Shown here: piece by piece, positions 7,846 through 57,033 of the stretch | How the letters are laid out: each line of letters starts with the position of its first letter | How positions within the stretch are numbered: the first letter of the stretch is position 1 | DNA from: a virus | Taxonomy: Duplodnaviria; Heunggongvirae; Uroviricota; Caudoviricetes | Virus record (IMG/VR): IMGVR_UViG_3300023371_000069 | DNA: 64,000 nt | Direction: 5' to 3' (one strand) | Made by a program: the position numbers and the translations under genes | The notes under the pieces: generated by a model | What the model saw: the letters and a program-made list of their open reading frames with translations, nothing else | Databases searched by the model: none | What the model was told of the DNA's origin: nothing

Positions 7846-7877
7846 AAAAAAAAGGGAGAGATATAAAATCTCTCCCT
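7846..7877 (-). terminator. Intrinsic terminator
   Basis: Stem agggagagat/atctctccct with a 5-nt loop and a minus-strand T tract, directly after the TGA at 7885. Confidence 0.8.
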
Positions 7878-7884
7878 AAAACTA

Positions 7885-8472
7885 TCAATATAACTCTTCC
7901 CAGAAGCTACCTAAAGCTTCACTAAATTCATCCAACTTTTGGATAATTTCATCATATACAGTAGGAGCTAAATCATAATCATGATTAATTTTTTGAACAT
8001 CCATACCATATAATACTTTACTCTTTGTTGGACGAGTGTTTAAGTTATAAATAAATTGCTGTCCTACTTCATCAACCTTGTAGAATCGAATTGAATATTG
8101 GACTGTACCTGCGACCGCAGTTGCACCGCCATCAATACACCAAGGAATCAACATTTTTTCCTCGTCAGCATAAGAAGTAACATCATAAAAAGGTACTGCA
8201 TAAATGCGAGCCTTATTATCTGCGGTTACATATTGAACGATGCATACTGTTTGTGACAAGTCCATATAATCAAAGAAACGGTCTACTTTAAAATAGACCG
8301 TTTCAGATTTATGGTCATGTTCAACACTCAGATACTCTGGCGTTTCAATTTGACGAGTTTTTAAGTCAATATTGTAGACTTTTTCAGACGAAGGTAAAAT
8401 AGCAATTGTTGGCCGATTGTTTGATTGAATATAAGCAAGATACTTATAATATTCTTCGGTTGAAATAATCAT
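7885..8472 (-). CDS. BppU-like (baseplate upper) N-terminal-domain protein (195 aa)
   Basis: Intact ORF with SD. The motif IDLKTRQI...DHKSETVYFKVDRFFDYMDL...VQY resembles BppU-type domains and is shared with 8494-10425. Confidence 0.6.
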   Translation of the reverse strand: MIISTEEYYKYLAYIQSNNRPTIAILPSSEKVYNIDLKTRQIETPEYLSVEHDHKSETVYFKVDRFFDYMDLSQTVCIVQYVTADNKARIYAVPFYDVTSYADEEKMLIPWCIDGGATAVAGTVQYSIRFYKVDEVGQQFIYNLNTRPTKSKVLYGMDVQKINHDYDLAPTVYDEIIQKLDEFSEALGSFWEELY

Positions 8473-8493
8473 TTTACCTCTCCTTTCAAGTTA

Positions 8494-10425
8494 TTAGAAA
8501 CTTACAACAAAGTTACCAGAGTGAGCATCTTCTCTTGCGGAGTAGGCACCATTTAATTCATTAGTTACATAGCAATGGATGAACATAACGTCACCATGAA
8601 TGTTACTACCATCAATCAATAGCTTATTGCCATCAAAGCTAACACCAGGAGTGTCCTGAGTCAATAGCTTATCTTCATCGTACCACTCATAGATTAGTCT
8701 ATCAGAGTGTAAAGCTACAGGCTCATCAAAAGCCTCATGCTCAATCACAATTTCAACTAAGCGGTTGGGGAATGCTTGAGCCTCAAGCTGCTTAGAATAT
8801 TCAGAAGAAGCAGGATATTTCAAGACTGGAGCTTCTGGAGCTCTAGTCACACGAGCAACATTACTCTCAATAGCAATATCATCGCGGTTCAACATAGAAG
8901 TAACATAAACCTTATACCAGCCGGGTTCAGCAGTCTCTAAAGTCAAATCATCAGTGACTTTACCAATCTTACCCTCGGTATTATTATCATAAGTGTGAGA
9001 AATAACATCAACCATGCCATCTTCTTTGTCATCGTTAACATTCTTCTTCCACAAATAAGTCATAGACTGATAAGCTGCAGCAGGCGCACCATCATTCTTA
9101 ACTTCAACATTCAATGTTAAGCCATCATTTTCATCTAGTAAAATACCATTTGCAGGCAATCCTAAAGCTTTTTCATCAGCGTCTTTATCACCAGAAACGA
9201 ATTCCAAAACCTCGGGACCAGGAATAGTAACACTCAAAGACTTAGAAGCAGAAGGGAATCCTAGCTTATGTTTAGCAATTAGCTTGTAAGTACCAGTTAC
9301 AACACCAGGAGCATCAGCAGCAGGACTAATGCTTTCAGTAATTCTATAAATGGCATAACGCTCATAAATAGCGATATTCTCTTCCTTAGTGGTTTCGAAC
9401 TGATTATGAGGCAATTCCTCATATCCATAAGGAGTAGCACTTGCGTTTTGTACATAGTAAACCTTATACTCAACTGGAGCATCATCTTCAGTTTCCTTGA
9501 AAGCTGTAGTTTCAGCACCTTGAACATTGATACCAGCAACGACAATATTGCCAGTTAAGTTACTGTACTCCCAATCATAAGACAAATGTCCCTGACCTTC
9601 AACCCAAGCTTGACCAGCCAAAGTTACAGCGTTATTCTTATCCAAATGAATAACATTGTTTTCAAAACCAATAGAATAGCCAGGAGCATCGAAGGAAGGT
9701 GGGTCTACAGTATCACTATCAGAAGTATGCTCACTATTTTCAATTGCTAGCTTAAATAAAGAAGCAGCATCATCATATTCAACATAATCAACTACGGGCT
9801 TTAATGCCTGCTTAATAGTGATAGTTGCAGGAACAGAGTTCCAGCTATAAACAACCTTGTCGCCATCTCTCTTTAAGAAACGTAAAGAGAATTCAACAGG
9901 ACCTTCTTGTGCGGTAACTGCACCAGTTAAAGGCCATACCAAAATCAACTTACCTAAATGATGCTCGCTCTCATAATCCATATAAGGAATAGGAGTTGCG
10001 CCCTGCTCACCATTTTTCAGCTTCCACTGAATATAAGGCTCAGTCATCATGAAGTCCATAGAATCGAAGAAGCGGTCAATGCGTAAGAACAAAGTCTCGG
10101 CAATTACGTCACCTTGAACGCCAGCGCCGTATTTCTTGAAACCATCAGGAATAGTAATAATTCTAGTATTAGCATTTACCTCTAAACAAGGTTCATCTAA
10201 AGGCAACATTAAATATTTAATTGGGTTATCAGCATTATCGACCAAGTCTCCCAAACGGGTAAAATACTTCTCCAAAGAAGAGAAACGATCGAATTGATTT
10301 AATTCGTCTTTTTCAGCTTGCTGCAGAGGAGTCTTCAATTTTCCCTGGCTATCCAGCTCTAACAGTAGCTTTCCAGCATCTGCAAAAAGGAATGAATAAT
10401 CTGCATTTTTAATAGAAGTAATCAT
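8494..10425 (-). CDS. BppU-like domain plus Ig-like beta-sandwich domains, baseplate/fibre carrier (643 aa)
   Basis: Intact ORF ending TAA-TAA. Contains VNANTRII...GDVIAETLFLRIDRFFDSMDF...YIQW, then YLW/YEW...G.Y.V.V patterns typical of Ig-like folds. Confidence 0.6.
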   Translation of the reverse strand: MITSIKNADYSFLFADAGKLLLELDSQGKLKTPLQQAEKDELNQFDRFSSLEKYFTRLGDLVDNADNPIKYLMLPLDEPCLEVNANTRIITIPDGFKKYGAGVQGDVIAETLFLRIDRFFDSMDFMMTEPYIQWKLKNGEQGATPIPYMDYESEHHLGKLILVWPLTGAVTAQEGPVEFSLRFLKRDGDKVVYSWNSVPATITIKQALKPVVDYVEYDDAASLFKLAIENSEHTSDSDTVDPPSFDAPGYSIGFENNVIHLDKNNAVTLAGQAWVEGQGHLSYDWEYSNLTGNIVVAGINVQGAETTAFKETEDDAPVEYKVYYVQNASATPYGYEELPHNQFETTKEENIAIYERYAIYRITESISPAADAPGVVTGTYKLIAKHKLGFPSASKSLSVTIPGPEVLEFVSGDKDADEKALGLPANGILLDENDGLTLNVEVKNDGAPAAAYQSMTYLWKKNVNDDKEDGMVDVISHTYDNNTEGKIGKVTDDLTLETAEPGWYKVYVTSMLNRDDIAIESNVARVTRAPEAPVLKYPASSEYSKQLEAQAFPNRLVEIVIEHEAFDEPVALHSDRLIYEWYDEDKLLTQDTPGVSFDGNKLLIDGSNIHGDVMFIHCYVTNELNGAYSAREDAHSGNFVVSF

Positions 10426-10455
10426 TTCTAAATATCATCCTTTCTTTAAATTTGC

Positions 10456-10479
10456 GAGGGAGAGATTACTCTCTCCCTC
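10456..10479. other. Intergenic stem-loop without a minus-strand U-tract
   Basis: gagggagag/ctctccctc inverted repeat between two co-oriented genes. Its stem resembles the terminators but no T tract follows. Confidence 0.6.
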
Positions 10480-10511
10480 TATTATTTTGATAATTTAATT
10501 AAATAATTAAA

Positions 10512-10721
10512 TTATTTCTGTCCAGCAACTTCTTTCCAAAGAGGAAGGTCAGCTTCTGGAATTACTACGGTATCATGGTAAGTCTTGCCATCGCAAGTCA
10601 AACGCTTACCCTGGTCTGCAGTTAGACGATATTTTCTAATATAATAAACATCTTCTAAATGCACAGGAGAACAAATAGTACCATTAGTACCTAAGTAAGT
10701 ATATAAAACTTGTTTAGTCAT
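10512..10721 (-). CDS. Small protein (69 aa), possible chaperone of the upstream giant protein
   Basis: ATG with the SD GGAGG 16 nt after the giant gene's stop, TAA stop. Function inferred from position only. Confidence 0.65.
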   Translation of the reverse strand: MTKQVLYTYLGTNGTICSPVHLEDVYYIRKYRLTADQGKRLTCDGKTYHDTVVIPEADLPLWKEVAGQK

Positions 10722-10737
10722 TTTTTATCCTCCTTTA

Positions 10738-13700
10738 TTATTTTCCGACAATAGAGATATTATCAATACTGTCAACGGTTACGAATGGTTGACCATTAGC
10801 TCCACCAACAATCCAATCATTCCAAGTGGTTTCCATACCAGATGGACAATAAATAGTTACGACAGAAGGTCTAGAGCCTTGACCATTTTCGATACAAGCG
10901 ACATCTCTCTTGTTCTTTAACCATTTTTCTTGAGTTAACTGAGAAGGAGAATTTTCTGCACCAATAGTTAAGGTTTTCAATGCAATACCCCAAGAAATTG
11001 CTCCACCTAAAATATCTCTTAGCATTGGATTCAATACGCAATCAACAGGTTCAGCTAAGTTACCAGTAGCAGAGAAAGCGTAAGTTTGAATCAATACTAA
11101 TGGGTCGCAGAATGTAAAGTTACTAAAGTAAGGACAGCTTTCAAAAGCGCCATTATTAATAACTCTCAACTTCTTCATTGCGGGGAAGTCAACATATTTC
11201 AAAGCTTTCATACGAGCAAAGAAATTGTTGTAAATAATACGAACTTCACAAGTAGCTGCACTATCAAAGAAGATATGAGTAATATACTCATCTTCAGTGA
11301 ATCCACGATATTCATAGATTGGTTGTCCAGCGGTTACACCATCAATGCCAGAAGGAGTTCGAGTTGGTAAAGTAATCTTACCTTTCAAGAAGCCATTCTT
11401 ATATTCAGGCTTCAAAGATAAAATGTATCCATTAGAATAATCATAAGTTCCGCCTTCACCATATGCGTCAGTATAACTAGAACCTACAGTGTAATTAAAG
11501 TATTTCACTGGGTCAGTTACATTTGCAAAAACACTTTCCTTCTTATATACCGCATAGAATGTATAATCTCTGGTTGCAGGATACATAGAAACATTGATTA
11601 AAGGAAGTTCTTCATCAGGAACATTTTCACCGTAAATAACTTTAGCCTTTTCAATGTCATTAGTCCAGCCCTTAAATGCATTACGCATATACAAATCATC
11701 GGCAGTTAGGTTTACAGGTGCGGGAACATTATCATTCATATAAGAACCCTTATCACTGTAAGCAACCTTAGCTACTTGTCTATATGTTGGGTCGAAGTAA
11801 TCTAAGAAGACTGCTTCGTATTCATGCTCAGTTAAAATAGCATAGAAAGGATAGTCAAACTTATCAGCTGCGAACAGCTTAGATTTTGCAGCCATCCAAG
11901 CTACATTATGAGCAGCAATCTTTTCTGCGTCAGTCATATCATCGTTGATATCACCATAAATAATTTTACTCTTGTCTGCGGCATTGGAAGAAGTAGACCA
12001 ACCATAGAAATCCCAGTGGGCTCTTTCTACTTTATACAAGCTATATGGGTTAGTAAACCACAAAGTGGAATCCCCAGCCATAGCTTCTTGACTAATCTTC
12101 TGAACACTAGGTCCATATCCATCAGAACTTAAGTAATCAACGAATCCTTCTGCACCAGTATCTTTATCTACTAAAACGAATTTAGCAGAGTATGCAGGAG
12201 TAACGTTAGCAAAGAAGAATGTTAAGTTAGGATAATACATCTGTAAAGTATCCTGAATAGAACTTTCTTCAATAGGAGTAGTATTATTGATATAAATTAC
12301 ACCAGTAATATTAGGTCTATTTAGACCACTAGCATCCTTGAAGCGAGGATTACTATACAAATTGGTTAACATAGTAATTGCATCATCGGCAACATTAGTA
12401 ATGTCTGCTGCAAATTCGCCAGCCTCAGTGCGGCCGCCATGTCCATCGTCACGATACAAGCCACCACTCAATACATCAATATTGAACTGCTTTTCATTAT
12501 AGACATAACCATCAGGATTATACAGAGTAAATCCATAGTGACCATTATCAATGTAATACTTCTTAGAAGCATCAAATACGTCACCTTCAGTTAAATGAGT
12601 ATAAGGACACCATTCAACATCAGTCATGGTTACATTGGCATTACCAGCATTATTATTTAAAGTATACAATTGCTTTAGAATGATGTAACTATTATAACCT
12701 AATTTACCGCCAATAAATTTAACTGTATTCATCTTGGAACTACCCTCGAAGAAACCTTCTAAGTATAATCCAGGATTTGCTTCTAATTCATCGGTAGTAA
12801 CATTTAAAGTGGGAATTTCATATGCATGGTCTTCATCATGGCCAATTAATTCAGTTAACAAGTTAGCTTGAGTTAAGGCCAAAGAACCAACGGATGCAGG
12901 CAAATACAAAGTATTTAACGCAACACCATCTGCAAATGTAACAGAAGTTAAGTTACTTGCACCAGTAGCTCTGAAGTTTTCCATCTTTTCAGAAGAGCTA
13001 AAATCAAGAGCAGTTTCATTTACTAGACCAATATTACAGAAGTTAACTTCTTTTAATAGAGGTAGTGAAGTAGGTACTGTAATACCATTTAACTTCTTAT
13101 TATACCAACCAATTTCAGTCTTAGTACTTGCATTACTATCTTTATAGTCAATGGTAGTACCATCATGACCAAGCTTCAAGCGAGTTAGCTTATCAGCCTT
13201 ACCCTCAAGTTTAAACTCAGTCCAATACATCTTACTTAAGTCACCGAAATCAGACATTTGGTTAGTACCATAAATATATAACAACTGTTCAGGATAGTTG
13301 TCACTATTTTTAATACCATTTTCCAATTCATTTAATACGAATTGCATCTTATGGATACCATCATATTTCTTAGAAGGATAGTTCATACTGTCATCACCAG
13401 CAGTAACATATGCGCTTCGAATTGGAGTAGGTTCAATCCAATATTCAGAGTCAAACTCGTGAGTCTTGGTTCCAAAAGGTACATTGTTTACCCAATATGG
13501 GTCATCAACGCTATTGGTCCATTTATCAGAGTGAACATCAGTAATATCAGAGTCAAGGTCACTTCTGTTGTTAGCAGAAATACGACCCCATAGACGGTTC
13601 GCACCACCACGAGCATAGTTACCTTGGGTCAACCAAGAGTCAATGTACTCAAGACGATTTCCAACGAACTGCTGACGAGATTGAGAACGGTCACCTTGTA

Positions 13701-16700
13701 AAGCATAGAAGTAAGTGCCGGTGTCTGGTTCAGCGAACGCACCACCAGAACCTTCGCCGCCCAAGTGAGCAACGCCCTCTTCTTTTGCTTTGGGGTTACA
13801 AATAGTAATATACTTAAAGTACATATCCAAATTAGTAGCTAATAATGGACGCTCGCCTTCACAAGCAATATTATTAGTTGCATCAGGATTAAAAGTATAC
13901 CACTTTTCAATATAATCAACAGACTGTAAAGGAGCTTTACTAGTTCCGTCTGCATTTAATAATTTAGCAAACTTAGGAGTATCATTACCTCTTAAGTTTC
14001 TATATTTAGGAACAATCCAAGTGTCTTTAAAGAACTTATAGAAGTTGTTCCACAAGATACTATCAGAAGTAGAGAAGTTACCTGCTTCAGTAGCATCAAC
14101 ATTGAATTCGAATGAAGGAATACCAGTATTGTTAATACCTAACTGAGTATCAATATCATAGAAGATTGGATACCAGATGTACTCTCCACCAGCTTCATGA
14201 GGACCCCAAGAGGCCATCATACAGTTCTTACCACGAGAGTCGTATAACTCCATAACTTCAGTCATTACGAAGTAAGTAGCAACGTACTCAGGGTCGAAGT
14301 GGTCTTCAAATTCATTAGTAAATTTAGCAGCACGATATTCTTTAGTATCGTGAGTATAAACCTTACCAGCATATTCTTTTGGAGCTGCTACATAATATAA
14401 TCCCTTAGCCCAATCCTCTTGAGAAGGAGTTTCGACCGCGCGGACTGCACCGGTTGGATGACCTGGGTTAATAACAACACCATTAGCAGCGTCGTTCATA
14501 TCATAGTCCATACCATGCCAAGTATAATACTGAGTATTAGCATCATAAGTAGCATTCTCAATATCTACTGGAGCAATCAGTAAGTCAAAACGAGAATTTA
14601 GAGTGTCTAGAGTATCATCTTTAAATTCGTAGTAAGTAGTACCACCAGCAAATTCTTCATTAGATAATGCATAAACATCATCAGTAGTGCTTACAGTGTT
14701 TCCACCAGCAGTTAATACATAGAACTTACCTTTTACATATACATACTCAGCAGGACATACATTAACTGGAATGTAGCGGTCTTCAATAACCTGCTCATAA
14801 TAAATCTTATTTGCATCAAAAGTGCTTGCATCAATTACATATTCACCATCAGCATTTAAGATGTAATATTTACCAGAAATATAAGTCTCTGCAGTTAAAG
14901 AGATAACATCATAGTTGACTTCACTCTTTACATAGTAGGTAGTGTTTTCATCAAAGTCGGCATTACTAATAGCGTAAGAATCACCATCAACTACATAGTA
15001 AACACCAGGCTCATATGCGGTATCACCGACAGGAACTTTAGAGTAAGTACCTTGAGAAACAACTGCATCAAGATTAGTACTCCACAACCATTTACATACT
15101 TTTTCCCAGTTAGTATGAGTAGATAGCAATGCCTTAGCACCGGCCTCTAAATCGCCCTTAGGAATTGTACCAGTTCCTAACTCTTCAGCAACTTCATCAA
15201 GTTCACCTTGAGTAGCTTGCTTAAAGTTGTAAAGAATATCAATATAATCATCCTTGCTGTGATAGCGATATTCAAAGCTATTAGCCACAACAGGAGCTTC
15301 ATTAGCATTGTAACCACCATTAGATACAGTGGAATTAGTAGGAGGTGTGAAACTTAATTCAACACGGCTCCATGGGTCACGATAAGAGCAATAACCACGA
15401 GCATTGTTAGAGAACTCCCAACATTCTGCTACGTCTCGTACTGCCTTATATTCCATTTTACCTTCATCATTTAAACCCTTAGGGAATAACTTATTAGTAA
15501 CTTTCTTACTAGGTTTAAATCCTAAGACCTGAGTAGAGCTCTTATCCAATAGCATACGATAAAAACCGATGAAAGTGTACTTAGCATTATCACCAGAACC
15601 AGTCTTTTGGAAAGCCATAACTGGGAAGCCCAATAGAGAAGTACGATAATCGCCCCATTGAATACCCTTAATTACAGAGCTATCAACAACAGGTTCCAAT
15701 TTATTGGTATTATTTAATAAAGCTAAATAGTCTTGTAAAGGATGCTTAGTATAACCATTACCAACCATAGATGCGAAACCTGCATTATAAGAACCAGAAG
15801 ATTCCATATAGTCAACTTTCATAGTCCATCTATCAGTTCCGTTAGTATAGTTATTCATATACCAACCATCAGCACAACGACACTCTTCATGTCCAAGATA
15901 TTTACTATCTTGTGCTAACTTAGCTTTATCAGAAACGAAAACTTCAGCATAAGGTCCACGGTTTAAGAAGATATTTAAAGAATCTTCTTCCATATATAAA
16001 CCGCTCTCAGCATTTAATTTTTCAAGCTCTTCTGGTTTTAATTCAGCCTTCTCCTTATCGGTAAAGTCTGCGATTGGTTTCCAGTTAAATTCTCCTTCTA
16101 CCTTAGTCTTAATCTTGTAATTACGACGAGGATAGAACTCAGAAGAAGTACCCTGAACAGCAAATTCAACCTTATCTCCAGAAGTCATAGTGGAAATCCA
16201 AGATGGGCAATGATGCTTGTAGTACAAGCGAACGCCTTCTTTAATTTTATCACTATCAGTTTCGCCTTCTGCGATTAAGCCATCGGCACGAGCCAAAGTC
16301 TCTAATTCACCATTAGCATATGCTCTTTCCAAATTGGTATTAACAAATTCAACACTAATGTATTTAGTATCGTCTTTACTATATGGTAAAGTAGCATTAC
16401 CAGTATCGTAAATGATATAAGGCATCAAAGGTTCATTAGGATGAGCTTCATTATATCTTAGCATAGCTTCATAAGAGAACTGGAACTCTTTCAAGTTATT
16501 ATTCTCCTCAGCCAATGCATAAGCATTACTTTGGTCAAAGATTTTTACGTTCTTGCGGTCAACAGAGAAATTTTGTACAATCTGATTAACATTTAAATCA
16601 GAATTATAAATTCTCAATTTATATAAATCAATGTCACAATTACTAGAATCAAAAACAAAGTTTCCACTATTAATTGTAAAGGCGTCAGGGTCAGTAGACT

Positions 16701-18789
16701 TAATAACACCAGTAATAACACCATTGATATAGATATATAAATATTTTAAGCTATCTTGATATACAAAACTTAAATTAATTAACTCATCTTCAACGAAGTT
16801 TACGTTAACAGTATTTTCACCGTTTGAGAAGAAAGCGTCCTGAGTGCCTACGCAGAAACCAGTAGCTTTAACATTGGTTGCATCATAATCATATAGACCT
16901 GCGGCAACATTAGTAATGTTAATATTCTTTTCAACAGTTTGGAATTTTAAATTATCATAAGTGTCTGGGTCTAAAGTTGCTTGTAAGTAAGCATCATAGT
17001 TAGAATAGCCAGTATCTTTTTGAGCTTTAAAAGCTTCATACCAAACACCGTCACCTTGATAACGAGTAATATTGGTAATTAAATTATCATATTTTTGAAC
17101 ATTGCGAATGCGGAATTGCATTTCAACAGTGTGAGACTCTTGTCCACTAACACCGGCAGCAAATACCATCTGCTGGAATGGAATAGTTAATCTAGCACCA
17201 TTACTAATTCTTAAACAAGACTGGTTAATGCTTGAATCCATCATCCAACCGTTATTATACCAGTTAAAGTTTTCGAAAATGGCGTTTTTCTTTTCACCAT
17301 TCAAAGTGTAGCTCCACAACTGTCTCTTAGCTGCGGACTCAGAATTAGAACGTCCAGTAGCAGAGAAGTCTAATAACAATCCTGCTTGCTCAACAGTCAT
17401 ATCACGATTAGGGTCTTTAACAACCTTAAACTCAATTTCTCTCTTTACAAATTTTTCATCAGTCTCGCCGCAAGAAATTTGATAGCTATTTAAAGCATTC
17501 ATTTCTGCATCAGCGATTTCCCAATAATCAAATTTAGAGAAATCCTTAACTTCACGAGGAGAGCTTTCTAATTCAATATTATTTTTATACAAATGCACTT
17601 TAGTAGAGTTGGTATTTGCGGGGTCCCATACTAAGAATGGGATTTGAATAGTATCGTAATTATAATATTCAGCCTTATAATCACCCAACCAAATTACTGG
17701 TTTAGCATTTGCGTTACTTGTTTCAATAACTGCGATTTCGTACTGTAGTGGAGCAACTCCTAAGCCTCTCTTAGGATTACTGGAAGTACCAGTGTTCTGC
17801 CACAGCTCAATACGAACAGTGTGATATCCGTGAGTTGCTTTGTCTGTACCTACTGTAAATGTCTGAGTACTATTAGCTACGTTAGCCTCGATAACACGAG
17901 TTTCAGCAGGAGTATTCATATCATCATAGTAGAAATCTAAGACCTTAGATAAAGAACCAACAACTCCGCACTTAATTTGGAATCCAGAAGTAGGATATCT
18001 AGTAGCTGGGTTATAACCGGAAACTTGAGATAACTTTAATGCAGAAGTTGATAAGTCAACAGTTCTAGTACGGCTCTTTTCGTCATGATTTGCACCTTGA
18101 ACATAAACAGACAACACACTAGAAGAGGACTCTCTTAATAGAGAACCAATTTCAATATAGTCATCAATAATACCGGGAACGCCCTCATAGTCAGATTCAC
18201 CAGTCTTATAAGTACGAGTTTGAGTAGTATAGTTATCAATAACCTCGTCGGAAATACGAGTACCCAAAGAATATACAACATTCAATGTAGTATCTACAGG
18301 AGTCACACCATCTGCCTCTAAAGCAGACTCTGCATGGATATGGAAATAAGCCTCTTGACCATTAATGAAGTTAGTATTGTCAAGAGTTAAAGTGATTGAT
18401 GGACGAGTAGTAGTAGAAACACCGGGACCACCGCCTGTGCCGCTAATAGAAAGCAATTCACAAGTATAGTTTTCTTCACCAATTAATTCAACTTTATAGA
18501 AACCGCCATCGGAATTTAAGATTAGGTCGCCTTTCTTAGGGTCGCCTTTAACAGCGCTCTTAGGAAGTGTTGCATAGCCCGTATCTTCATTTACTTCTGG
18601 TTTCTCAACTTCACCATAGTAAATTGCGGCGCCCGCAGAACCCATAATAGTTCTTTGGCCCTGGCTATCGACATAAATCTTACCTGAGTCAGTAGCAAAA
18701 TAAATCCATCCATCTTTTACTTCAGCACGCTGAATCTTACTGTCATAACCACGGACGGGAATAAATTTTACGCCATAATTTTCACTCAT
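10738..18789 (-). CDS. Giant multidomain virion-associated protein (2683 aa): fibre-type N-terminus, LamG-like domain, CotH-like kinase domain, leucine-rich repeats including BspA-like
   Basis: Single ORF with no in-frame TAG. LamG-like LYKLRIYNSDL. CotH-like VQGTSSEFYPRRNYKIK, WTMKVDYMESSG.YN, FIGFY, YDSRGKN, WYPIFYDIDTQLG. LRR-like LPLLKEVNF...LNTLYLP and INNGAFESC...IQTYAFS. Confidence 0.8.
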   Translation of the reverse strand: MSENYGVKFIPVRGYDSKIQRAEVKDGWIYFATDSGKIYVDSQGQRTIMGSAGAAIYYGEVEKPEVNEDTGYATLPKSAVKGDPKKGDLILNSDGGFYKVELIGEENYTCELLSISGTGGGPGVSTTTRPSITLTLDNTNFINGQEAYFHIHAESALEADGVTPVDTTLNVVYSLGTRISDEVIDNYTTQTRTYKTGESDYEGVPGIIDDYIEIGSLLRESSSSVLSVYVQGANHDEKSRTRTVDLSTSALKLSQVSGYNPATRYPTSGFQIKCGVVGSLSKVLDFYYDDMNTPAETRVIEANVANSTQTFTVGTDKATHGYHTVRIELWQNTGTSSNPKRGLGVAPLQYEIAVIETSNANAKPVIWLGDYKAEYYNYDTIQIPFLVWDPANTNSTKVHLYKNNIELESSPREVKDFSKFDYWEIADAEMNALNSYQISCGETDEKFVKREIEFKVVKDPNRDMTVEQAGLLLDFSATGRSNSESAAKRQLWSYTLNGEKKNAIFENFNWYNNGWMMDSSINQSCLRISNGARLTIPFQQMVFAAGVSGQESHTVEMQFRIRNVQKYDNLITNITRYQGDGVWYEAFKAQKDTGYSNYDAYLQATLDPDTYDNLKFQTVEKNINITNVAAGLYDYDATNVKATGFCVGTQDAFFSNGENTVNVNFVEDELINLSFVYQDSLKYLYIYINGVITGVIKSTDPDAFTINSGNFVFDSSNCDIDLYKLRIYNSDLNVNQIVQNFSVDRKNVKIFDQSNAYALAEENNNLKEFQFSYEAMLRYNEAHPNEPLMPYIIYDTGNATLPYSKDDTKYISVEFVNTNLERAYANGELETLARADGLIAEGETDSDKIKEGVRLYYKHHCPSWISTMTSGDKVEFAVQGTSSEFYPRRNYKIKTKVEGEFNWKPIADFTDKEKAELKPEELEKLNAESGLYMEEDSLNIFLNRGPYAEVFVSDKAKLAQDSKYLGHEECRCADGWYMNNYTNGTDRWTMKVDYMESSGSYNAGFASMVGNGYTKHPLQDYLALLNNTNKLEPVVDSSVIKGIQWGDYRTSLLGFPVMAFQKTGSGDNAKYTFIGFYRMLLDKSSTQVLGFKPSKKVTNKLFPKGLNDEGKMEYKAVRDVAECWEFSNNARGYCSYRDPWSRVELSFTPPTNSTVSNGGYNANEAPVVANSFEYRYHSKDDYIDILYNFKQATQGELDEVAEELGTGTIPKGDLEAGAKALLSTHTNWEKVCKWLWSTNLDAVVSQGTYSKVPVGDTAYEPGVYYVVDGDSYAISNADFDENTTYYVKSEVNYDVISLTAETYISGKYYILNADGEYVIDASTFDANKIYYEQVIEDRYIPVNVCPAEYVYVKGKFYVLTAGGNTVSTTDDVYALSNEEFAGGTTYYEFKDDTLDTLNSRFDLLIAPVDIENATYDANTQYYTWHGMDYDMNDAANGVVINPGHPTGAVRAVETPSQEDWAKGLYYVAAPKEYAGKVYTHDTKEYRAAKFTNEFEDHFDPEYVATYFVMTEVMELYDSRGKNCMMASWGPHEAGGEYIWYPIFYDIDTQLGINNTGIPSFEFNVDATEAGNFSTSDSILWNNFYKFFKDTWIVPKYRNLRGNDTPKFAKLLNADGTSKAPLQSVDYIEKWYTFNPDATNNIACEGERPLLATNLDMYFKYITICNPKAKEEGVAHLGGEGSGGAFAEPDTGTYFYALQGDRSQSRQQFVGNRLEYIDSWLTQGNYARGGANRLWGRISANNRSDLDSDITDVHSDKWTNSVDDPYWVNNVPFGTKTHEFDSEYWIEPTPIRSAYVTAGDDSMNYPSKKYDGIHKMQFVLNELENGIKNSDNYPEQLLYIYGTNQMSDFGDLSKMYWTEFKLEGKADKLTRLKLGHDGTTIDYKDSNASTKTEIGWYNKKLNGITVPTSLPLLKEVNFCNIGLVNETALDFSSSEKMENFRATGASNLTSVTFADGVALNTLYLPASVGSLALTQANLLTELIGHDEDHAYEIPTLNVTTDELEANPGLYLEGFFEGSSKMNTVKFIGGKLGYNSYIILKQLYTLNNNAGNANVTMTDVEWCPYTHLTEGDVFDASKKYYIDNGHYGFTLYNPDGYVYNEKQFNIDVLSGGLYRDDGHGGRTEAGEFAADITNVADDAITMLTNLYSNPRFKDASGLNRPNITGVIYINNTTPIEESSIQDTLQMYYPNLTFFFANVTPAYSAKFVLVDKDTGAEGFVDYLSSDGYGPSVQKISQEAMAGDSTLWFTNPYSLYKVERAHWDFYGWSTSSNAADKSKIIYGDINDDMTDAEKIAAHNVAWMAAKSKLFAADKFDYPFYAILTEHEYEAVFLDYFDPTYRQVAKVAYSDKGSYMNDNVPAPVNLTADDLYMRNAFKGWTNDIEKAKVIYGENVPDEELPLINVSMYPATRDYTFYAVYKKESVFANVTDPVKYFNYTVGSSYTDAYGEGGTYDYSNGYILSLKPEYKNGFLKGKITLPTRTPSGIDGVTAGQPIYEYRGFTEDEYITHIFFDSAATCEVRIIYNNFFARMKALKYVDFPAMKKLRVINNGAFESCPYFSNFTFCDPLVLIQTYAFSATGNLAEPVDCVLNPMLRDILGGAISWGIALKTLTIGAENSPSQLTQEKWLKNKRDVACIENGQGSRPSVVTIYCPSGMETTWNDWIVGGANGQPFVTVDSIDNISIVGK
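14630..15030 (-). repeat. Three degenerate ~35-40 aa Tyr-rich repeats within the giant protein
   Basis: AYEPGVYYVVDGDSYAISNADFDENTTYY / TYISGKYYILNADGEYVIDASTFDANKIYY / YVKGKFYVL...YALSNEEFAGGTTYY. Confidence 0.7.
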
Positions 18790-18819
18790 TTATTTAAACT
18801 CCTTTCTTTCCTTTATAAA

Positions 18820-18860
18820 CAAAAAAATAGGTGAGAAGAATAATCTTCTTCCCACCTATT
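18820..18860 (-). terminator. Intrinsic terminator
   Basis: The minus-strand RNA forms aataggtg-g-gaagaa/ttcttc-t-cacctatt, with a G-U pair that exists only on the minus strand, followed by a T tract. Confidence 0.8.
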
Positions 18861-18922
18861 AGATTATCCTCTATTTTTAATTAAAAATCGAAATAATCTT
18901 CTTAATACCTTTTGTCCTCAAA

Positions 18923-20644
18923 TTAGAAAGTGCCCCAAACCAGAGACATCTGAACGCTAGAGCCAGAGCTACTTACCTGCAAGTTACTATGAGTAGACTC
19001 AACATAGAAAGTAGCAGTTTGCTCACTCTTTTGATTCTTAGAGCCAGTTACTTGACCCTTAATAGAAACAGTAGCCTTAGTCTTAGCAGTGTCACTAGAT
19101 ACACTGGAAGTCATTCCAGTTAAACGAGCATTAGTATCATAGACTTTAACGGTCTTGGTATATACTTTCTGTACATGACCATAATTGTCTCTATCAATAC
19201 CATTTTCGCCCTTAGAGGCATCAATAATAACAATATCTTCTGACTTAGCAACATAATCGGTGCCAAGAGTAGGATTATTTAAAGTACCAGTGGTATCTCT
19301 AGCTGGGTCAGTAGTACTTACCGCATTATGATTAATAGTCAGTGACATTGCCTTAGAAGCAGTGTCTGAACTTGGACTTACAGTAATACAATTTCCACTT
19401 AATACAGAAATAGAGCCAGCATTAGTACCAGTAGTAGTGCCAGTTTTCTTTTCTAATAATTGAATACCACCACCATTTGCTGGAGTCAATAAACCAACAG
19501 AGTAAGTGGTATCTTCATTACCAGAAGGAACATAACCCCATTGTACAGTAGTTAAGAATCCATTGGTACCTTCAGTGCCTTCTGCAATCAATAAGTCACC
19601 AGGCTGTACTGTAATCTCTTCAGTACCAGTATCGGTTTTAACTGTTACATCAAAAGCTTGACCAACTTTATAAGTATAACCTTTCTTAATGGAACCAGTA
19701 GGAATGCTATTAACAACACCCTGATATTCCATTGCGTCAAAGTCTGCTCTTAAAGCATCAACTTCTGCTTTAGTATATACATCTAAAGTCGCAGTACCAT
19801 TGCTGAACTTAGCAGTAGAAGTGCCACTACCACCATATTTAATTGCAGGATTAAATGTGCTACTAGAACTTCTATTAGCAGTATCTTTAACTGTTACAGT
19901 AAATCCACCAGGCTTATTGGTCTCATCTTTGGGGTCCCAAGCATGAGCGGTTGCTGTATGAGTGTTACCATCTAATTTAGTGTCAGCAGCAGTGATTCCA
20001 ATTACGCCATTATCTTCGCTAACAGTAACATTGGTACCACCCTGAATAACAACTGCACTTTGCTGTACGCCAGCTTCATTAACTAACTTAATCTTTGCAG
20101 CATTATCTTGAGCCATATTTTCGCTGGCTAATTTAGTACCATATACTTCAATAGTACCATCTGTTGTACCTTCAACAATAGTAATACCATTTTTACCAGT
20201 TAAAGAGAAAGCGAAAGAAGGTTTTCTATTACCTTCACCAATTTCTGTTAAAGTAGTTGTTACAGTAACAGTTCCTGTCTGCTCTCCTGTGACTAGACCG
20301 CCATAAGTATAATTGGTATCTGTATTGGCATTAATTTGAACCCAATTTTGACCATTGGAAACAGCTAAAATAGAATCAGCTGTAATATAAACGAATTGAC
20401 CAGCATTTAAAGCAGTTGCAGTTGGTAAGACCTCCACGGTAGCGTAAGTAGTAATACCTTCATTAACAGCTTCGATGCTACCATCACTTAAACCAACATA
20501 TAATCTATGAGTATCATTGGTTAAGTAGAAAGTGCCGCTTTCGCCAGAACGGGCGGTTCTCTTAGCATCTAATGCGGTTTGTAAACCATGTAAAAACTTA
20601 ATCTGAGAATTATCAGCAATAGTGATAACATTAGTATCTGCCAT
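18923..20644 (-). CDS. Tail fibre/spike-like structural protein (573 aa, TAG-free)
   Basis: Intact Thr/Gly/Ser-rich ORF. The N-terminal motif IKFLHG...GTFYLTNDTHRLYVG is shared with neighbouring fibre genes. Confidence 0.7.
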   Translation of the reverse strand: MADTNVITIADNSQIKFLHGLQTALDAKRTARSGESGTFYLTNDTHRLYVGLSDGSIEAVNEGITTYATVEVLPTATALNAGQFVYITADSILAVSNGQNWVQINANTDTNYTYGGLVTGEQTGTVTVTTTLTEIGEGNRKPSFAFSLTGKNGITIVEGTTDGTIEVYGTKLASENMAQDNAAKIKLVNEAGVQQSAVVIQGGTNVTVSEDNGVIGITAADTKLDGNTHTATAHAWDPKDETNKPGGFTVTVKDTANRSSSSTFNPAIKYGGSGTSTAKFSNGTATLDVYTKAEVDALRADFDAMEYQGVVNSIPTGSIKKGYTYKVGQAFDVTVKTDTGTEEITVQPGDLLIAEGTEGTNGFLTTVQWGYVPSGNEDTTYSVGLLTPANGGGIQLLEKKTGTTTGTNAGSISVLSGNCITVSPSSDTASKAMSLTINHNAVSTTDPARDTTGTLNNPTLGTDYVAKSEDIVIIDASKGENGIDRDNYGHVQKVYTKTVKVYDTNARLTGMTSSVSSDTAKTKATVSIKGQVTGSKNQKSEQTATFYVESTHSNLQVSSSGSSVQMSLVWGTF

Positions 20645-22193: not shown

Positions 22194-23675
22194 TTATCCA
22201 ATTGTAACACTATGCACTTCTGTACTTGCAATAGAAGCAGGTGCATAAATCCAAATATTATAATCGACTGCAGTATATCCATTTGCACCTTCAACCTCAA
22301 CAGTTGCGGTTTGTTTTACATAATCTGCAGTAGCATCTGCATTCATACTTGAAGTAATAATTGCAGATGTAACGCTCTTACCACCGCTCACAGGAAGCGC
22401 AATAATATAACGCTTCATACCAGCTAAATCACTTGCGGCCCAAGTAATAGTTCTATTAGAAGCGCCGTTGCCTTTTCCAGCTAAATTGTCTCGGATAAAA
22501 GCAGAAGTTAATTCACTTCCAGTAGAATCTCCACCAGCGAAACATTGTCTATATCCAGTAATGGATTTAGAAGTTTTAGAACTGGTGGTTCCAGCTTTAA
22601 TTTGTCCATCAGCATATTCCTTGCCTAAATTGGTAGAAGGAATAATACCATCTGAATAAGTAGCTGTTGCAGTCATTTTATAATTCATATTATCAATAAC
22701 TTGAATTTCTTCCATTGTACCACTTTGAGTAGTACGAGTGGTTGTTCCATCACTAACATTCCATCCAGTAGCAGTAACACCAGTGCTTGTATTATAAGTA
22801 TAAGAGCCGCTATTGAAACTTAATGCATATTCTGGAGTTACTTTAGTTCCAACTTCATAAGAAGCATCACTAGAAGGTTTAGTGAAAGCAATAGAGGGTT
22901 TTGTCGTAGTAGGATTTTGTTCTTCTGCAAAAATACTTGCTAAGAAATCCTTAATATTCATTCCTGCGGCATCCACTACTTTACTACCAGTAGAAGGAAT
23001 AGTGACTGTACCAACTGGAGTTGTAAATGTGAAATCAGAATCAAAATACACATTTTCAGCATTATAGTTTCCATCCATGGCTGCCCATGTAGAACCATTA
23101 TATACATAAGAAGTATATTGCCATTTATCATTGATAATAATATCTTTAATAATGATAATATCACCAGCACATGGCAACCATCCTTGTGTGGTTTGGTCAA
23201 TTAACTCTTGATGCATGACTTCACTATCTTCATTTTCAATAGTGATAATAGTTGCTTCTGAACTGTCAATAGATACCCAAGTGCCGTCACTACGTAAAAA
23301 CTTATTGGTTTCTCCATATCCAGGAGCAGGAACAAGTCCAGCTGTACCTGCGGCATCTTTACTAGCACCGATAAAAACAGAAATAGCTTGTTCTAATGTA
23401 GAATCAACCCATTTACCAGAAGCAGTATCATATACTAAAATAGACTTATCAGCTAAATCTGTACTTAAAGCAATATCAGTTAATTCACTTAAACTAATTT
23501 TACCTGCGGCTCCCCCTCCGCCCGCAATTAGCTTTTCACCCAAATATAAAACCGCATTAGTTGAATCTGCTTCGGAAATAAAATACAGAGTATCAACATT
23601 TGGTTTCTCTGGACTGGCTAAAAGCATTTCATAGGCTTTTGGAGTACCACGCATAAATTTTACATAATTTGCCAA
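22194..23675 (-). CDS. Tail-associated structural protein (493 aa, TAG-free)
   Basis: TTG start with SD, TAA stop. N-terminal YVKFMRGT...TLYFISE motif and a Thr/Ser-rich beta C-terminus. Confidence 0.7.
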   Translation of the reverse strand: MANYVKFMRGTPKAYEMLLASPEKPNVDTLYFISEADSTNAVLYLGEKLIAGGGGAAGKISLSELTDIALSTDLADKSILVYDTASGKWVDSTLEQAISVFIGASKDAAGTAGLVPAPGYGETNKFLRSDGTWVSIDSSEATIITIENEDSEVMHQELIDQTTQGWLPCAGDIIIIKDIIINDKWQYTSYVYNGSTWAAMDGNYNAENVYFDSDFTFTTPVGTVTIPSTGSKVVDAAGMNIKDFLASIFAEEQNPTTTKPSIAFTKPSSDASYEVGTKVTPEYALSFNSGSYTYNTSTGVTATGWNVSDGTTTRTTQSGTMEEIQVIDNMNYKMTATATYSDGIIPSTNLGKEYADGQIKAGTTSSKTSKSITGYRQCFAGGDSTGSELTSAFIRDNLAGKGNGASNRTITWAASDLAGMKRYIIALPVSGGKSVTSAIITSSMNADATADYVKQTATVEVEGANGYTAVDYNIWIYAPASIASTEVHSVTIG

Positions 23676-50729: not shown

Positions 50730-51734
50730 TTATTCCTCAGTTGCAAAACCTGCAAAGGGACGAGTACCAGCTACCATGCCATTGAAGTCAATAGTATCAG
50801 TAGAATGAGTGCTTACACGGTCGATAGCGCTATCGGTATCAGCAGATTCAATAATCTGAATAGCTGCCAGAACCTTCTTAGTGCGGTCGAAACGAGTATA
50901 ATCTGGGAATGCATCCATAGTGAAAGTGAAAGTGGATGGGTCGCCAGAAGATGCCATAGTGAAAGTAAAGTTAGACTGAATCTTGCAGTTAGGAATTACG
51001 AACTCTGCAGGCATATCAACACCCTCAGTATTACGGAACAGAGTAGAAGCCTCTAGGTAATAGTTACCACCGAACTTGTCGGGAGTGATATCAATCTGCT
51101 GTGCCATAGACTTACGAGCAACATAGTAGTCAACCAATACAACACAACCAGCATAGAAAGGACTCAAATCGTTAGCACGAGCCTGCTGATTAACCTCACT
51201 ACGAGCTTCATCAGTCCAAGTTTCAGTTAACTTAATTACATTGCCTTCAACAGAACTAGGAATGAAAGGCTCAGTAACGATTTCACCATTCTGCATTAAC
51301 ATAACATAAATGAAATCTTCACCATAGCCACTCTTACCCAACTCAGGTACATAAGGAGCTTCCTGTAGAGTAATAGTTACTTCACCATCGCCAACAACAA
51401 CAGCATCAGTCTGCTCAGTAGTATGAACCATAATGGGCTTAGCATCACTAGCCTCAATCAAACCTGCGCCAGATAGAATCATGAAGCCAGCGGGAGAGAT
51501 TAGAGCATCTTCCATAGTGAAAGTAATGGTACGCTCACCTTCCCAAGCCATCAAACGAGAGTTACCACGGCCGCCCTGTGCATAAACGGTAGTAGCAGCA
51601 CCCTCCATGCTAGAAGTCTTCAGAGTATCAAAATAGATAACAGGTTCGTTCTTATAGAAAATCTTGTTACCAACCTTCTGGTTAGCCTTTGCCTTTAAGA
51701 CAACATCACAAATTTCGCGAACGCCAAATTTCAT
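50730..51734 (-). CDS. Major tail (tube) protein (334 aa, TAG-free)
   Basis: The true start is the ATG at 51734 (MKFGVREICDV) after the SD AAGGAGG. Tube-type motifs VYAQGGRGN.RL..WEGER and FTFTMASSGDPSTFTFTMDA. Position fits. Confidence 0.8.
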   Translation of the reverse strand: MKFGVREICDVVLKAKANQKVGNKIFYKNEPVIYFDTLKTSSMEGAATTVYAQGGRGNSRLMAWEGERTITFTMEDALISPAGFMILSGAGLIEASDAKPIMVHTTEQTDAVVVGDGEVTITLQEAPYVPELGKSGYGEDFIYVMLMQNGEIVTEPFIPSSVEGNVIKLTETWTDEARSEVNQQARANDLSPFYAGCVVLVDYYVARKSMAQQIDITPDKFGGNYYLEASTLFRNTEGVDMPAEFVIPNCKIQSNFTFTMASSGDPSTFTFTMDAFPDYTRFDRTKKVLAAIQIIESADTDSAIDRVSTHSTDTIDFNGMVAGTRPFAGFATEE

Positions 51735-51760
51735 GGTTTGTATCCTCCTTAAAATTTTAG

Positions 51761-52483
51761 TTAGTGAATATTTTTCATCCAATTGTCAGGTTGATTGTCG
51801 GGTTTGCCTCCAGCCAAACGACAACGGACGTCCATATCCCAATTAATATATAGCATATATCTTTCAACTAAGTCATATAATTGGAACATGGTTAAATCCA
51901 TTAGCTCCTACATAGGAATATGTAATCCCACTGTAAGTATTGAAAGATACTGGCTAAATATACTGATATTACTTTGACCCTTTTCAGCAGCAACCTTAGC
52001 TCGTCCTCGCATAAGTTTTTCTGCTATCTCTCGAGCTTTAGCATTTGCTGGATTAAAACTCTACTAATCCATAGGGCCAGTTTTCAGACAACAGATATTT
52101 GTCAACGCTGCTTGTAATGACTCAAAATTCTTTTCATCAATTTGAATTGTCATTCCATCTCCACTAAGTAGCACAGAGCGTGGAGTCATCATTACTTTAT
52201 ATTTTGGAAATATTAAAGTAAAGACTTGCTGCACCGCAAACTTTTTATCTGCCGCTTCTTTTTCTGACATTATCGTCATAAATATTTGAAAATTATTTGT
52301 ATCTCTTAAAAGAGATTCGTCCTTGATAAACATGGATTTATTTAAGCACAAACACTAAATACCTGTAAAAAAATCTGCTTCCCCTATAAATGCAATCTCT
52401 TTGATGCGAGGTTGATGAATAACTAACTAACATTCAGGAACGGGATAATCCGTTCCGCACATTAAAGATAATCGAGTATCCAT
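51761..52483 (-). CDS. Conserved-type tail-region protein, chaperone-like (240 aa with TAG=Gln)
   Basis: The ATG overlaps the upstream TGA. TAGs at 52427, 52355, 52064, 52061 and 51908, TAA at 51761. C-terminus LTMFQLYDLVERY...RLAGGKPD...WMKNIH. Confidence 0.75.
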
Positions 52484-53067
52484 CAATTATTAAACATTGC
52501 ATCAAAGTTTTTGATGAAGTCTTCTTCATCATTAGGATTAGGCATTTTCTTTTTATCCTCTTCTCCATGGATAGCTTGATACATTAAACACAATCCACCA
52601 AATTCATCCGTAAGAATCATTTGATTTGCGCCTAAAAATTCCAACTCACCAATTCCAGTTAAATGTTTTCCATTGAACATAGAATCAATCTCTGCCGCAA
52701 TCTTATAAGGACGCAACTCAAAGTCTTTCATTTTCCATTGGTCAAAATGACAAATAATGTCAAACTCAATAATATTATCTCTAAACTCGGGATTCTTACG
52801 ATTACCAGTAAAATTATCAAAACTAACAATAATATAATTCAATACTGAACCATCAACAGTTAGCTTAGGTACAATCTTAATCTATTCACCAAATAAACCA
52901 AGAGTTTCATCCTCGGTTAAATTAGGCTTATTCATACAATCACGAGTTGTGTAGTATAACATTTTTTTCAGACGCTCATTTTTCATAATCATCTGAACAA
53001 TCAAATTCATATCTTTTTCAGTAGACAAAAAACTTGATTTAGGATAAGAATAAACTTCTCTTTTCAT
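52483..53067 (-). CDS. Putative tail terminator/completion protein (194 aa with TAG=Gln)
   Basis: Joins 52882..53067 and 52483..52842 through the TAG at 52882. Motifs FDIICH.DQW and RPYKIAAEIDSMFN. Position fits. Confidence 0.65.
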
Positions 53068-53094
53068 ATCTATATCTCCTTTATCACTTAATTA

Positions 53095-54312
53095 TTAAAA
53101 TAAAGACTCAACAACAATTGTTTTACTATAATCTCCATATAGTAATTCAAATTGTCCACTATAAGAACTAACCCATCGAACAGATACTCGTCTTGGGTCA
53201 GTTGGGTCAGGAATTAATTCAACAGGATATTTCTTGTCGACATACCATTCATCAGCTTTTGTACCATTAAATTCATAATCATACAATTTCTTAACCTTAA
53301 TAAATGTTTCTCCAATAATATCCATTTCATCAACAGTTCCTTCATTTGGGTCTTTAATTGGTTCAATTAAACCACCAACGATACCAGCATCTACATCATC
53401 CTCAGTTTCATTAGCATAATACTCTACTGCGATAACTTCCAAGATTCCAGGAGTCGAAATCCAATCAGAAGCTTCAACACGCCAACAAGTATCATCGCCT
53501 TGAAGATAAAACTTACTATATCGTTTAAAATAATTCATTGTGTATTCATTTTTTGGCATTAAAATACTCAATGAGTGATTAGGAGTGTCAACACTAATTC
53601 CATGTTTTTGAATGAAGTTAATTTTAGTTTCCACTGGACCGCGCACGGCCGCATATGTGGTATGAATACCATCTTCATCCTCCCAAGCAATCTAATAAGA
53701 GCACTTGCGAATATCACCACGGAAATAAGCTAATTCAGTTAAATCTTGTAAATAAACTAACCAGTGAGTTTTTGTACCTAACCACTCAAACACATCGCCG
53801 CATTTGAAATTATATTCAAAACCCACAGAAATGATTTTATCATCATAGTCTTGTTTTAGTTTATTTGGATTAATAAGTGCGCGAACTGGCTTGCGGTTCT
53901 CCGCATCCACTCGCACGACCTCAGCAGCCTGATAAGAATTCCAAACTGCATGGTCTAAAGAACGACGCTTGTCTTTAATCATACGTTCTTGCTGTCTGTT
54001 ACCGCCCGCCTGACGAAAACGAGTAGCTTGTTCCCAAATACCAGTAATTTTGGGGTCTAGTTGCGTCAATACGATACCAGCCTCATCAATTTTATCTTGT
54101 GACAACAAATTCTCAATCTTTTGGATTGTTACAGTATCTAAATCAATGTTCATATTTTTAATTACTTTCATCAATTCTTCTACACGATTTTGCTATTCAA
54201 GTTGTTCGGCAGTAGAACCAGCTGGGTCAAACGGTCTTTTATCGTAAACTCCTAATCGACCTTTCATTAATCTAAAAGGGACACGGCTACTTAAATCATA
54301 ACCTGATGCCAT
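53095..54312 (-). CDS. Putative head-closure/head-tail joining protein (405 aa with TAG=Gln)
   Basis: ATG at 54312, TAGs at 54193 and 53692, TAA at 53095. Function inferred from position. Confidence 0.65.
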
Positions 54313-54604
54313 GGCTTAACTCCTACAAAAGACTAATGCTTTCAAACACAGTCTTGCGGTATAGTTCAAAATTCGTCTCTTGAGCTTTCAGTCCCTCTAA
54401 TTTACATAGCAGCTGTAAAAATTGCGGGTTCATGAATACTTCATTCATGCCCGCAATTTCTAAAATAACTGTATCTAATTGTTTAGGCCAATCTTCTTCA
54501 TGCTCGCGCATTGGAATTAATTTCCAAAGTTGGTTGGTTAAACGACGAACATTTACATCAATGCTTCTATCATCAAAATCAAATCCATATTTAGTCAAGA
54601 GCAC
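54296..54604 (-). CDS. Small hypothetical protein (102 aa if TAG is read through, 93 aa if not)
   Basis: GTG start overlapping the upstream stop. TAG at 54323 is followed by TGA at 54296. Confidence 0.65.
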
Positions 54605-55169
54605 TAACCTCCATTAAGCTAGACCAGTTGCTCTTATAACCGCCTTCCGCAGGTTTTCTGCGTTTATATAAGCGTTGCATATGGAACGAATCTCTGCGAG
54701 CCTCAGTCAATAAAGACAATAGCTTAGATAAGTGGTTCGCTTGAGAAGTCATTTTAAAATCAGAGCCACTATATTTCATTCGAGTATTTTCGATAGAAGC
54801 AACCTGGCGCTGAACCCAACCTTGCTTCATTAAAAGCGCCAGGATGTTGATTTCTTCTTGAGTAAGCTCAACATTAAATCGAGACTTATCAACTAAAACA
54901 TTTGGAGTCTACAATGTGTCACTTGGTAACTCTCCCCAAACAGTTCCCAATACAAAATCATCGGGAGTTAATTCATCCGCTCCCATAGTTCTAACTTCAA
55001 TCGTATAATTGTATAAATCTTGACGAGGAAATTCAAAACCAGGAATTGCATTAATTAAAAGATTTTGCAAATCTTTTAAAGTATCTTCGGGAGTTAATTC
55101 CAAGTATAAATCATCGGTAACTTGTCCAAGAAAGCGATTATAAACAGCCGAAAATTGTGTCTCAGCCAT
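54591..55169 (-). CDS. Putative head-tail adaptor (192 aa with TAG=Gln)
   Basis: Joins 54909..55169 and 54591..54830 through the TAG at 54909. Contains FNVELTQEEINILALLMKQGW. Located after the capsid genes. Confidence 0.65.
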
Positions 55170-55188
55170 ATAATTGCCTCCTTATTTA

Positions 55189-55809: not shown

Positions 55810-55842
55810 TTTTATATCTCCTTTTTCTCTGTTTTTAAAATG

Positions 55843-55880: not shown

Positions 55881-55903
55881 CTTAGTTATATATTAATATT
55901 TAA

Positions 55904-57016: not shown

Positions 57017-57033
57017 TACTCTTCTCTCCTTTC

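Follow-up and report, generated by a model that had tools for sequence, protein, structure and literature searches.

Absence of the reassigned codon TAG from a conserved five-gene block in the late operon of a recoded gut phage is probably a result of codon-usage selection

Five consecutive tail genes of a phage that reads TAG as glutamine (Gln) contain no in-frame TAG, while the genes on either side of them do, and the question is why. The genes lie in IMG/VR record IMGVR_UViG_3300023371_000069 (Caudoviricetes), of which a stretch of 64,000 nt, referred to here as the window, was analysed. The window corresponds to the minus strand of a phage contig of 105,768 bp between positions 25160 and 89159; CheckV estimates this contig to be 56% complete, which implies a genome of ~190 kb. 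All its long genes are on the minus strand and are whole only when TAG is a sense codon; reading TAG as Gln restores the portal, terminase and tail genes. The gene arrangement matches a late operon of the large siphovirus type, with a terminase and a portal, several strongly codon-biased virion genes, a gene for a 3115-aa tape measure protein, and a series of baseplate or fibre genes. The TAG-free block forms part of the tail module and codes, from its first to its last gene, for proteins of 573, 2683 (the giant protein P0001), 69, 643 and 195 aa (Table 1).

The absence of TAG from the block was confirmed as real and highly significant. A sequence-only reading of the window had described five open reading frames (ORFs) of 195, 643, 69, 2683 and 573 codons without in-frame TAG, and they were found where it had placed them, on the minus strand. 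It had also counted three TAGs in each of the two flanking genes (294 and 505 aa), which was correct, and about 50 in the tape measure gene, in which 51 were found over 3115 aa. Its expectation of roughly 65 TAGs for the block was too high because the block has fewer Gln codons: ~33 would be expected at the TAG/Gln ratio of the tape measure gene, and ~26 at the mean ratio of the tail flanks. The block contains 118 Gln-type codons (70 CAA, 48 CAG and no TAG), while 119 of the 539 Gln-type codons of the other tail genes are TAG (Fisher P = 7.6e-12). Within the late operon, up to 126 Gln-type codons follow one another without a TAG, whereas the longest such run in 20,000 shuffles was 79. The depletion is frame-specific, out-of-frame TAG occurring 16-17 times per 1000 codons in the block and 20-21 times in the flanks. 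The same 2683-aa protein, with the same neighbours, was present on 21 contigs from several samples, and the block is therefore not an assembly chimera.

The window was compared with 11 fetched related loci (L019, L020, L021, L022, L026, L027, L028, L029, L003, L030 and L004), whose identities ranged from 86% down to 40%, giving a set of 12 lineages. The giant protein, for which the protein collection held 693 homologues, was aligned across this set. TAG is Gln in the window's clade: the residues opposite TAG in this alignment were 9.7-fold enriched in Gln, and Gln was the majority residue in 16 of the 22 conserved TAG columns. TAG occurs in 96 columns of the alignment, in 29 of which the window has CAG or CAA, and about three-quarters of the relatives' TAGs fall in variable columns. 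A tRNA search found none on the 105.8-kb contig, which is 56% complete. A relative, G002, carries an array of 40 tRNAs (loci L015-L016, at ~98-115 kb of its contig), one of which is a tRNA(CTA). Two further tRNAs of that array have the anticodon TCA and are possible opal suppressors. The distal-tail genes visible on the G002 contig are nearly devoid of TAG.

All the fetched loci had the same gene order (535-730 aa, giant, ~70 aa, ~650 aa and ~200 aa), and the block was present and syntenic in 12 of the 12 lineages. Its genes are the most widely conserved of the distal tail and are more conserved than their flanks; the TAG-rich genes located downstream of it (294, 805, 73, 750 and 808 aa) had orthologues in the closest relatives only. 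The number of TAGs in the giant gene varied widely. None was present in the window, one in L019, three in L020, 18 in L021, 13 in L022, 25 in L026, 11 in L027, 24 in L028, 19 in L029 and seven in L003. L030 and L004 had none; since the flanks of L030 are TAG-free as well, it is a standard-code relative. For the whole block, the TAG fraction ranged from 0 to 0.35 and the count reached 37. In the 10 code-15 lineages the TAG fraction of the block was always below that of the flanks. The few TAGs of L019 and L020 were singletons: the window and the remaining close relatives have CAG or CAA there. They have the appearance of recent changes from CAG to TAG, and fit an ongoing C-to-T input followed by purging. 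Loci L028 (giant gene at 10001-17530) and L004 (giant gene at 3790-11478) are sisters in the trees of the giant, 195-aa and 643-aa proteins, yet TAG makes up 35% in the block and 52% in the flanks of L028 and ~0% in L004. Sisters that differ completely in TAG use indicate that this usage turns over quickly in this phage group.

The sequence-only reading had offered two explanations, one of which was that the block was acquired from a standard-code phage. An import so recent that TAG has yet to accumulate would account for the GC content at third codon positions (GC3) and the CAG share being higher in the block than in the flanks; standard-code or TAG-free relatives do exist (L030 and L004), and the 573-aa gene is unusually divergent between close relatives. 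The synteny of the block in every lineage is, however, at odds with a recent arrival, as is the fact that the block and its flanks show parallel levels of identity to each relative. For the giant, 195-aa and 643-aa proteins, the trees agree with those of two flank proteins (112 and 493 aa), and a comparison of block and flank genes across the lineages found no conflict. The window, L019 and L020 form a clade, joined first by L021 and L022 and then by L026 and L027, the standard-code L030 being distant; the nearest outgroups of the window's clade are thus code-15 lineages with TAG-bearing blocks. Base composition at neutral sites does not mark the block as foreign. Codon choice in the block does differ from that of the flanks, and is capsid-like, but the GC content at four-fold sites is not raised, being equal to or lower than that of the flanks in 10 of the 12 lineages; since specific codon preferences differ while four-fold GC does not rise, there is no GC shift. 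A step in codon bias between block and flanks was present in every lineage, the standard-code one included, and the genes that do vary between relatives are the TAG-rich fibre genes downstream. An import from a standard-code phage, already largely refuted by these data, is therefore rejected as very improbable.

For nearly all amino acids, codon choice in the block departs from the pattern of the tail flanks and approaches that of the capsid and tail-tube genes. The shares in flanks, block and capsid genes were, respectively, 0.19, 0.58 and 0.56 for TTC; 0.23, 0.55 and 0.72 for AAG; 0.58, 0.76 and 0.82 for ACT; 0.39, 0.62 and 0.64 for CCT; and 0.09, 0.00 and 0.03 for ATA. In all 12 lineages, T was preferred over A at four-fold sites more strongly in the block than in the flanks; the block had more C in two-fold pyrimidine-ending codons in 11 of 12, and more G in two-fold purine-ending codons likewise in 11 of 12. 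The standard-code lineage L030 showed the same bias in its block. Most of the lineages have diverged far beyond synonymous saturation, so the bias must have been maintained, not inherited. An index of preferred codons that excludes Gln (Fop) was derived by comparing the window's capsid genes with its tail genes outside the block. Fop was 0.47 for the block and 0.29-0.32 for the flanks, and in every one of the 12 lineages the block exceeded the flanks.

The TAG fraction followed this bias. In a binomial model of 144 genes from the 10 code-15 lineages, with lineage intercepts, Fop explained the TAG fraction (chi2 = 158), and a term for membership of the block added nothing once Fop was included (chi2 = 1.4, P = 0.24). 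Across the lineages, the Fop of the block and its TAG fraction were negatively correlated (Spearman -0.85). L021 serves as a natural control, since its block has lost the bias (Fop 0.29) and contains 26 TAGs. A logistic extrapolation from the window's late genes outside the block, based on a capsid-referenced codon adaptation index (CAI), was also tried; it predicted 21.6 TAGs for the block and 10.3 for the capsid genes, not zero, and the cross-lineage Fop model performed far better.

Leucine (Leu) codons provide a measure of mutation pressure at an equivalent C/T position. Of the G-ending Gln codons of the flanks, 74% are TAG, a 3:1 preference within the NAG pair, and the bias of Leu codons towards a first-position T is 0.91-0.94. 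The block retains the Leu bias (0.84-0.87; TTG/(TTG+CTG) = 0.87) while TAG/(TAG+CAG) is 0/48; TAG itself is thus selected against there. The same figures bear on the idea that TAGs are positively selected as attenuators that tune stoichiometry in low-copy proteins, the block being needed in more copies. TAG density is indeed highest in the tape measure and accessory tail genes, with none in the capsid, tube and block genes, and the 3:1 preference of the flanks is what such tuning would produce. The flank preference of 0.74 is nevertheless no stronger than the Leu bias, so mutation pressure suffices for TAG to accumulate in the flanks, and TAG positions are mostly lineage-specific and at variable sites, as expected of drift and not of maintained attenuators. 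Tuning of this kind seems improbable. The frequency of standard Gln codons is similar in flanks (3.05%) and block (2.8%), the flank TAGs adding Gln on top, which suggests that many flank TAGs arose by non-synonymous change at unconstrained sites.

The explanation we favour, with a probability of about two in three, is that TAG is a disfavoured codon that is purged in proportion to codon-usage selection, the block being a conserved, strongly codon-biased core. Codon-usage selection would act more strongly on this core of the distal tail than on the tail genes around it. With TAG read as Gln, a single synonymous C/T change separates CAG from TAG, and AT-biased mutation would keep making TAG, from CAG as well as through non-synonymous changes at sites free of constraint. 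TAG would be a poor codon and costly to translate, since the phage suppressor tRNA that reads it probably competes with release factor 1. Its removal would scale with the constraint on the codons and on the protein sequence of each gene; as about three-quarters of the TAGs lie in variable columns, the stronger protein constraint on the block should also lower TAG gain. The resulting balance would leave 0-3 TAGs in the block in the window's clade and 11-37 in relatives under greater AT pressure, and the window is best read as the extreme end of a continuum. The second explanation of the sequence-only reading, selection for translation without the suppressor tRNA, thus holds in part. Its form invoking high demand agrees with the bias resembling that of capsid and tail-tube genes and with the TAG fraction following that bias, whereas independence from the code switch is not a conserved property, since in code-15 orthologues the TAG count reaches 25 for the giant gene and 37 for the block. 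What the sequence-only reading had named as refuting it was largely observed: TAG follows a bias common to the capsid genes, and the code-15 orthologues do carry TAGs, the one departure being that they do so at 0.05-0.7 times their flank rates and so not at fully normal ones.

Several observations weigh against codon-usage selection as the full account. Among the window's own late genes outside the block, codon bias and TAG fraction were only weakly and not significantly related (Spearman -0.17), and the relation within the genome looks more like two classes than a gradient. The model with lineage and Fop expects ~4.5 TAGs in the window's block, and zero has a post hoc probability of 0.01. The codon usage of the block also resembles that of the TAG-free replication-side genes, which fits an explanation based on timing or on the tRNA pool equally well. 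The orthologues compared are statistically non-independent, which makes the P values optimistic. The tape measure gene is just as long as the giant gene and yet rich in TAG, so length alone is not the driver. The higher expression or copy number that the bias would reflect is itself proposed from codon usage. In three metatranscriptome runs, only 6-8% of the sampled words were present, on short Logan contigs of low depth; the fragments covered the block more than the flanks, but the runs were found via a block gene, and such contigs cannot rank expression, so that they speak neither for nor against it.

Some of these points favour timing as the cause: the block, like the capsid and tube genes, would have no TAG in order to be translatable before, or without, the suppressor tRNA, the tape measure and fibre proteins being made later. 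The shortfall below the codon-bias model and the codon usage shared with standard-code replication-side genes agree with this, as do the terminator-like hairpins at 18860-18826 and 7877-7853, which suggest punctuated transcription, and recoding has been proposed to act as a timer of late genes by Borges et al. (bioRxiv 10.1101/2021.08.26.457843). The orthologous blocks of seven other code-15 lineages, however, contain 11-37 TAGs, so that any such role is not conserved, and the closest relatives already have one and three in the giant gene. Nor is the block a standard-code early module: besides the TAGs of its orthologues, up to 37 in number, it is surrounded by other late-operon genes on its own strand, and the gene that ends 17 bp before it contains TAG. 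That 17-bp gap showed neither a terminator nor a promoter, and a scan of the intergenic regions of the block gave no convincing sigma-70-type promoter (87 matches, versus 64 +/- 8 in shuffles). Timing is therefore an unlikely general cause, although a role specific to the window's clade retains some probability because of the zero against ~4.5, the two-class pattern, the replication-like codons and the hairpins. In its widest form, the code switch would stage virion assembly in this clade, the capsid, tube and distal-tail core being TAG-free and made before or without the suppressor, and the tape measure, variable fibres and lysis genes being gated by TAG; in a related version, the number of TAGs would set the stoichiometry of the parts. 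We regard this scheme as doubtful.

The five genes probably form a conserved core of the distal tail or baseplate. Searches of the block proteins against PHROG and Pfam returned only phrog_14959 (function unknown), LRR_5 and a sub-threshold CotH match. The C-terminus of the giant protein contains BspA-type leucine-rich repeats (PF13306 LRR_5, E = 9e-7), while the CotH match to its central domain (E = 0.0019, 18 bits) falls short of the curated cut-off of 23.8. At the spot of this match, residues ~1480-1830 (window positions 13200-14400) include dozens of residues invariant among 18 homologues at 50-90% identity. An AlphaFold2 (AF2) model of residues 1250-1850, built from 18 sequences, had a mean predicted local distance difference test score (pLDDT) of 50, with values below 50 for the conserved CotH-like part, and PDB sequence searches with the giant protein and with a profile of its central domain gave no match. 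The 643-aa protein is predicted to consist of an N-terminal alpha/beta domain followed by tandem immunoglobulin (Ig)-like domains (AF2 mean pLDDT 75). The Foldseek matches of this model were arrays of Ig and FN3 domains, and Atlas gave a weak BppU_N lead. For the 573-aa protein, Pfam and PHROG searches gave no match and Atlas gave only weak fibre and Mtd_N leads, on which it may tentatively be called fibre-like. Neither it nor the 69-aa and 195-aa proteins could be assigned to a family. As to the 573-aa protein, its gene is the most divergent of the block (53% identity to the L019 and L020 orthologues, against 86-94% for its neighbours), and may have been exchanged or have evolved far faster than the other block genes. 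The hairpin at the downstream edge of the block and that between the 69-aa and 643-aa genes have arms in common, and only the former is followed by a T8 run. The 493-aa gene just upstream of the block contains no TAG among its 11 Gln codons, but these are all CAA and its codon usage is of the flank type; its lack of TAG is probably due to chance (P about 0.07-0.09).

Table 1. Positions in the window of the block, its neighbours and the genes used for comparison
Feature	Position	Strand	Remarks
573-aa gene, first of the block	18923..20644	-	0 TAG, 12 CAA, 9 CAG
Intrinsic-terminator-like hairpin between 573-aa and giant genes	18826..18860	-	15-bp stem followed by T run
Giant distal-tail protein P0001, 2683 aa	10738..18789	-	0 TAG, 41 CAA, 26 CAG
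69-aa gene	10512..10721	-	0 TAG; conserved in 11 of 12 lineages
Hairpin between 69-aa and 643-aa genes	10456..10479	-	GGGAGAGA...TCTCTCCC; without T run
643-aa protein gene	8494..10425	-	0 TAG, 8 CAA, 10 CAG
195-aa gene, last of the block	7885..8472	-	0 TAG in 9 Gln codons; 39-96% identity over 12 of 12 lineages
Strong intrinsic-terminator-like hairpin at downstream edge of block	7853..7877	-	arms GGGAGAGA / TCTCTCCC; T8 run
Upstream flank gene, 505 aa	20662..22179	-	3 TAGs; 17 bp from block
493-aa gene, upstream of block	22194..23675		0 TAG
Downstream flank gene, 294 aa	6882..7766	-	3 TAGs; first of the variable fibre cassettes
Tape measure gene, 3115 aa	39462..48809	-	51 TAGs; comparison gene
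Region of other TAG-free, strongly codon-biased virion genes	50730..59484	-	reference for 'optimal' codons
Reference virion genes	50730-51782, 55189-55872, 55904-57016, 57034-57918, 57946-59484	-	TAG-free

No DNA nearly identical to the block, or to the head and tail region, was found in the phage collection. Beyond the end of the window, positions 1-20000 of its contig (G000, locus L023) have a GC content of 43-53%, versus 35% in the rest of the contig, and a negative AT skew. This region contains only short ORFs, on both strands, and many dispersed repeats of 50-140 nt that are common to the equivalent region of a relative, G001. It yielded no tRNA and no match in an Rfam search, and none of the alternative genetic codes tried on these first 20 kb gave long ORFs.

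Uneven recoding among genes has been reported for code-15 gut phages (Borges et al., bioRxiv 10.1101/2021.08.26.457843; Peters et al. 2022, PMC9523058). According to the available passages of these papers, those phages, like the one studied here, use TAG as a sense codon in late structural genes, while the early and replication genes can be read in the standard code; selection is credited with raising or lowering the number of recoded stops in certain gene families; and code usage shifts quickly between close relatives, as it does here between L028 (35-52% TAG) and L004 (~0%). The same passages stress enrichment in lysis and structural genes as a timer, whereas the depleted block of the window is a distal-tail core and not an early module, and they do not describe a depletion inside the late operon that tracks codon optimisation. 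The window also resembles phAss-1, of the proposed Phassvirus group (Babkin et al. 2023, PMC10607447), in that both come from large gut phages of the siphovirus type, with ~3100 aa in the tape measure protein and TAG read as Gln in many characteristic late genes. One virion protein of the window is 51% identical to its phAss-1 counterpart, but there is no similarity at the nucleotide level, and the phage of the window is a distant relative with a larger genome. phAss-1 carries large tRNA arrays with a tRNA-Sup(CTA); the distribution of TAG per gene was not analysed in that paper (PMC10607447).

The explanation is an ordinary one and calls for no new mechanism. Under classical translational selection, highly expressed genes avoid rare or costly codons. 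The block bears its usual marks: two-fold codons tend to end in C, T is preferred to A at four-fold sites, and ATA, CGA, GGA and TCA are avoided; here too the least favoured synonymous codon is excluded. UAG is likewise avoided as a stop in highly expressed bacterial genes (PMC8954436). Unlike in the classical case, the disfavoured codon of the block is a reassigned stop, whose cost probably includes competition with the release factor and dependence on a phage tRNA. A reassigned stop would thus behave as an ordinary but strongly disfavoured synonymous codon, the density of which reads out, for each late gene, the selection for efficient translation. TAG-free blocks in recoded phages should accordingly not be labelled 'foreign' on that ground, and codon bias calculated without Gln offers a simple covariate for gene callers and for studies of the spread of code changes through genomes. 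For this large family of uncultured gut phages, the five-gene block marks a conserved, and probably abundant, part of the tail.

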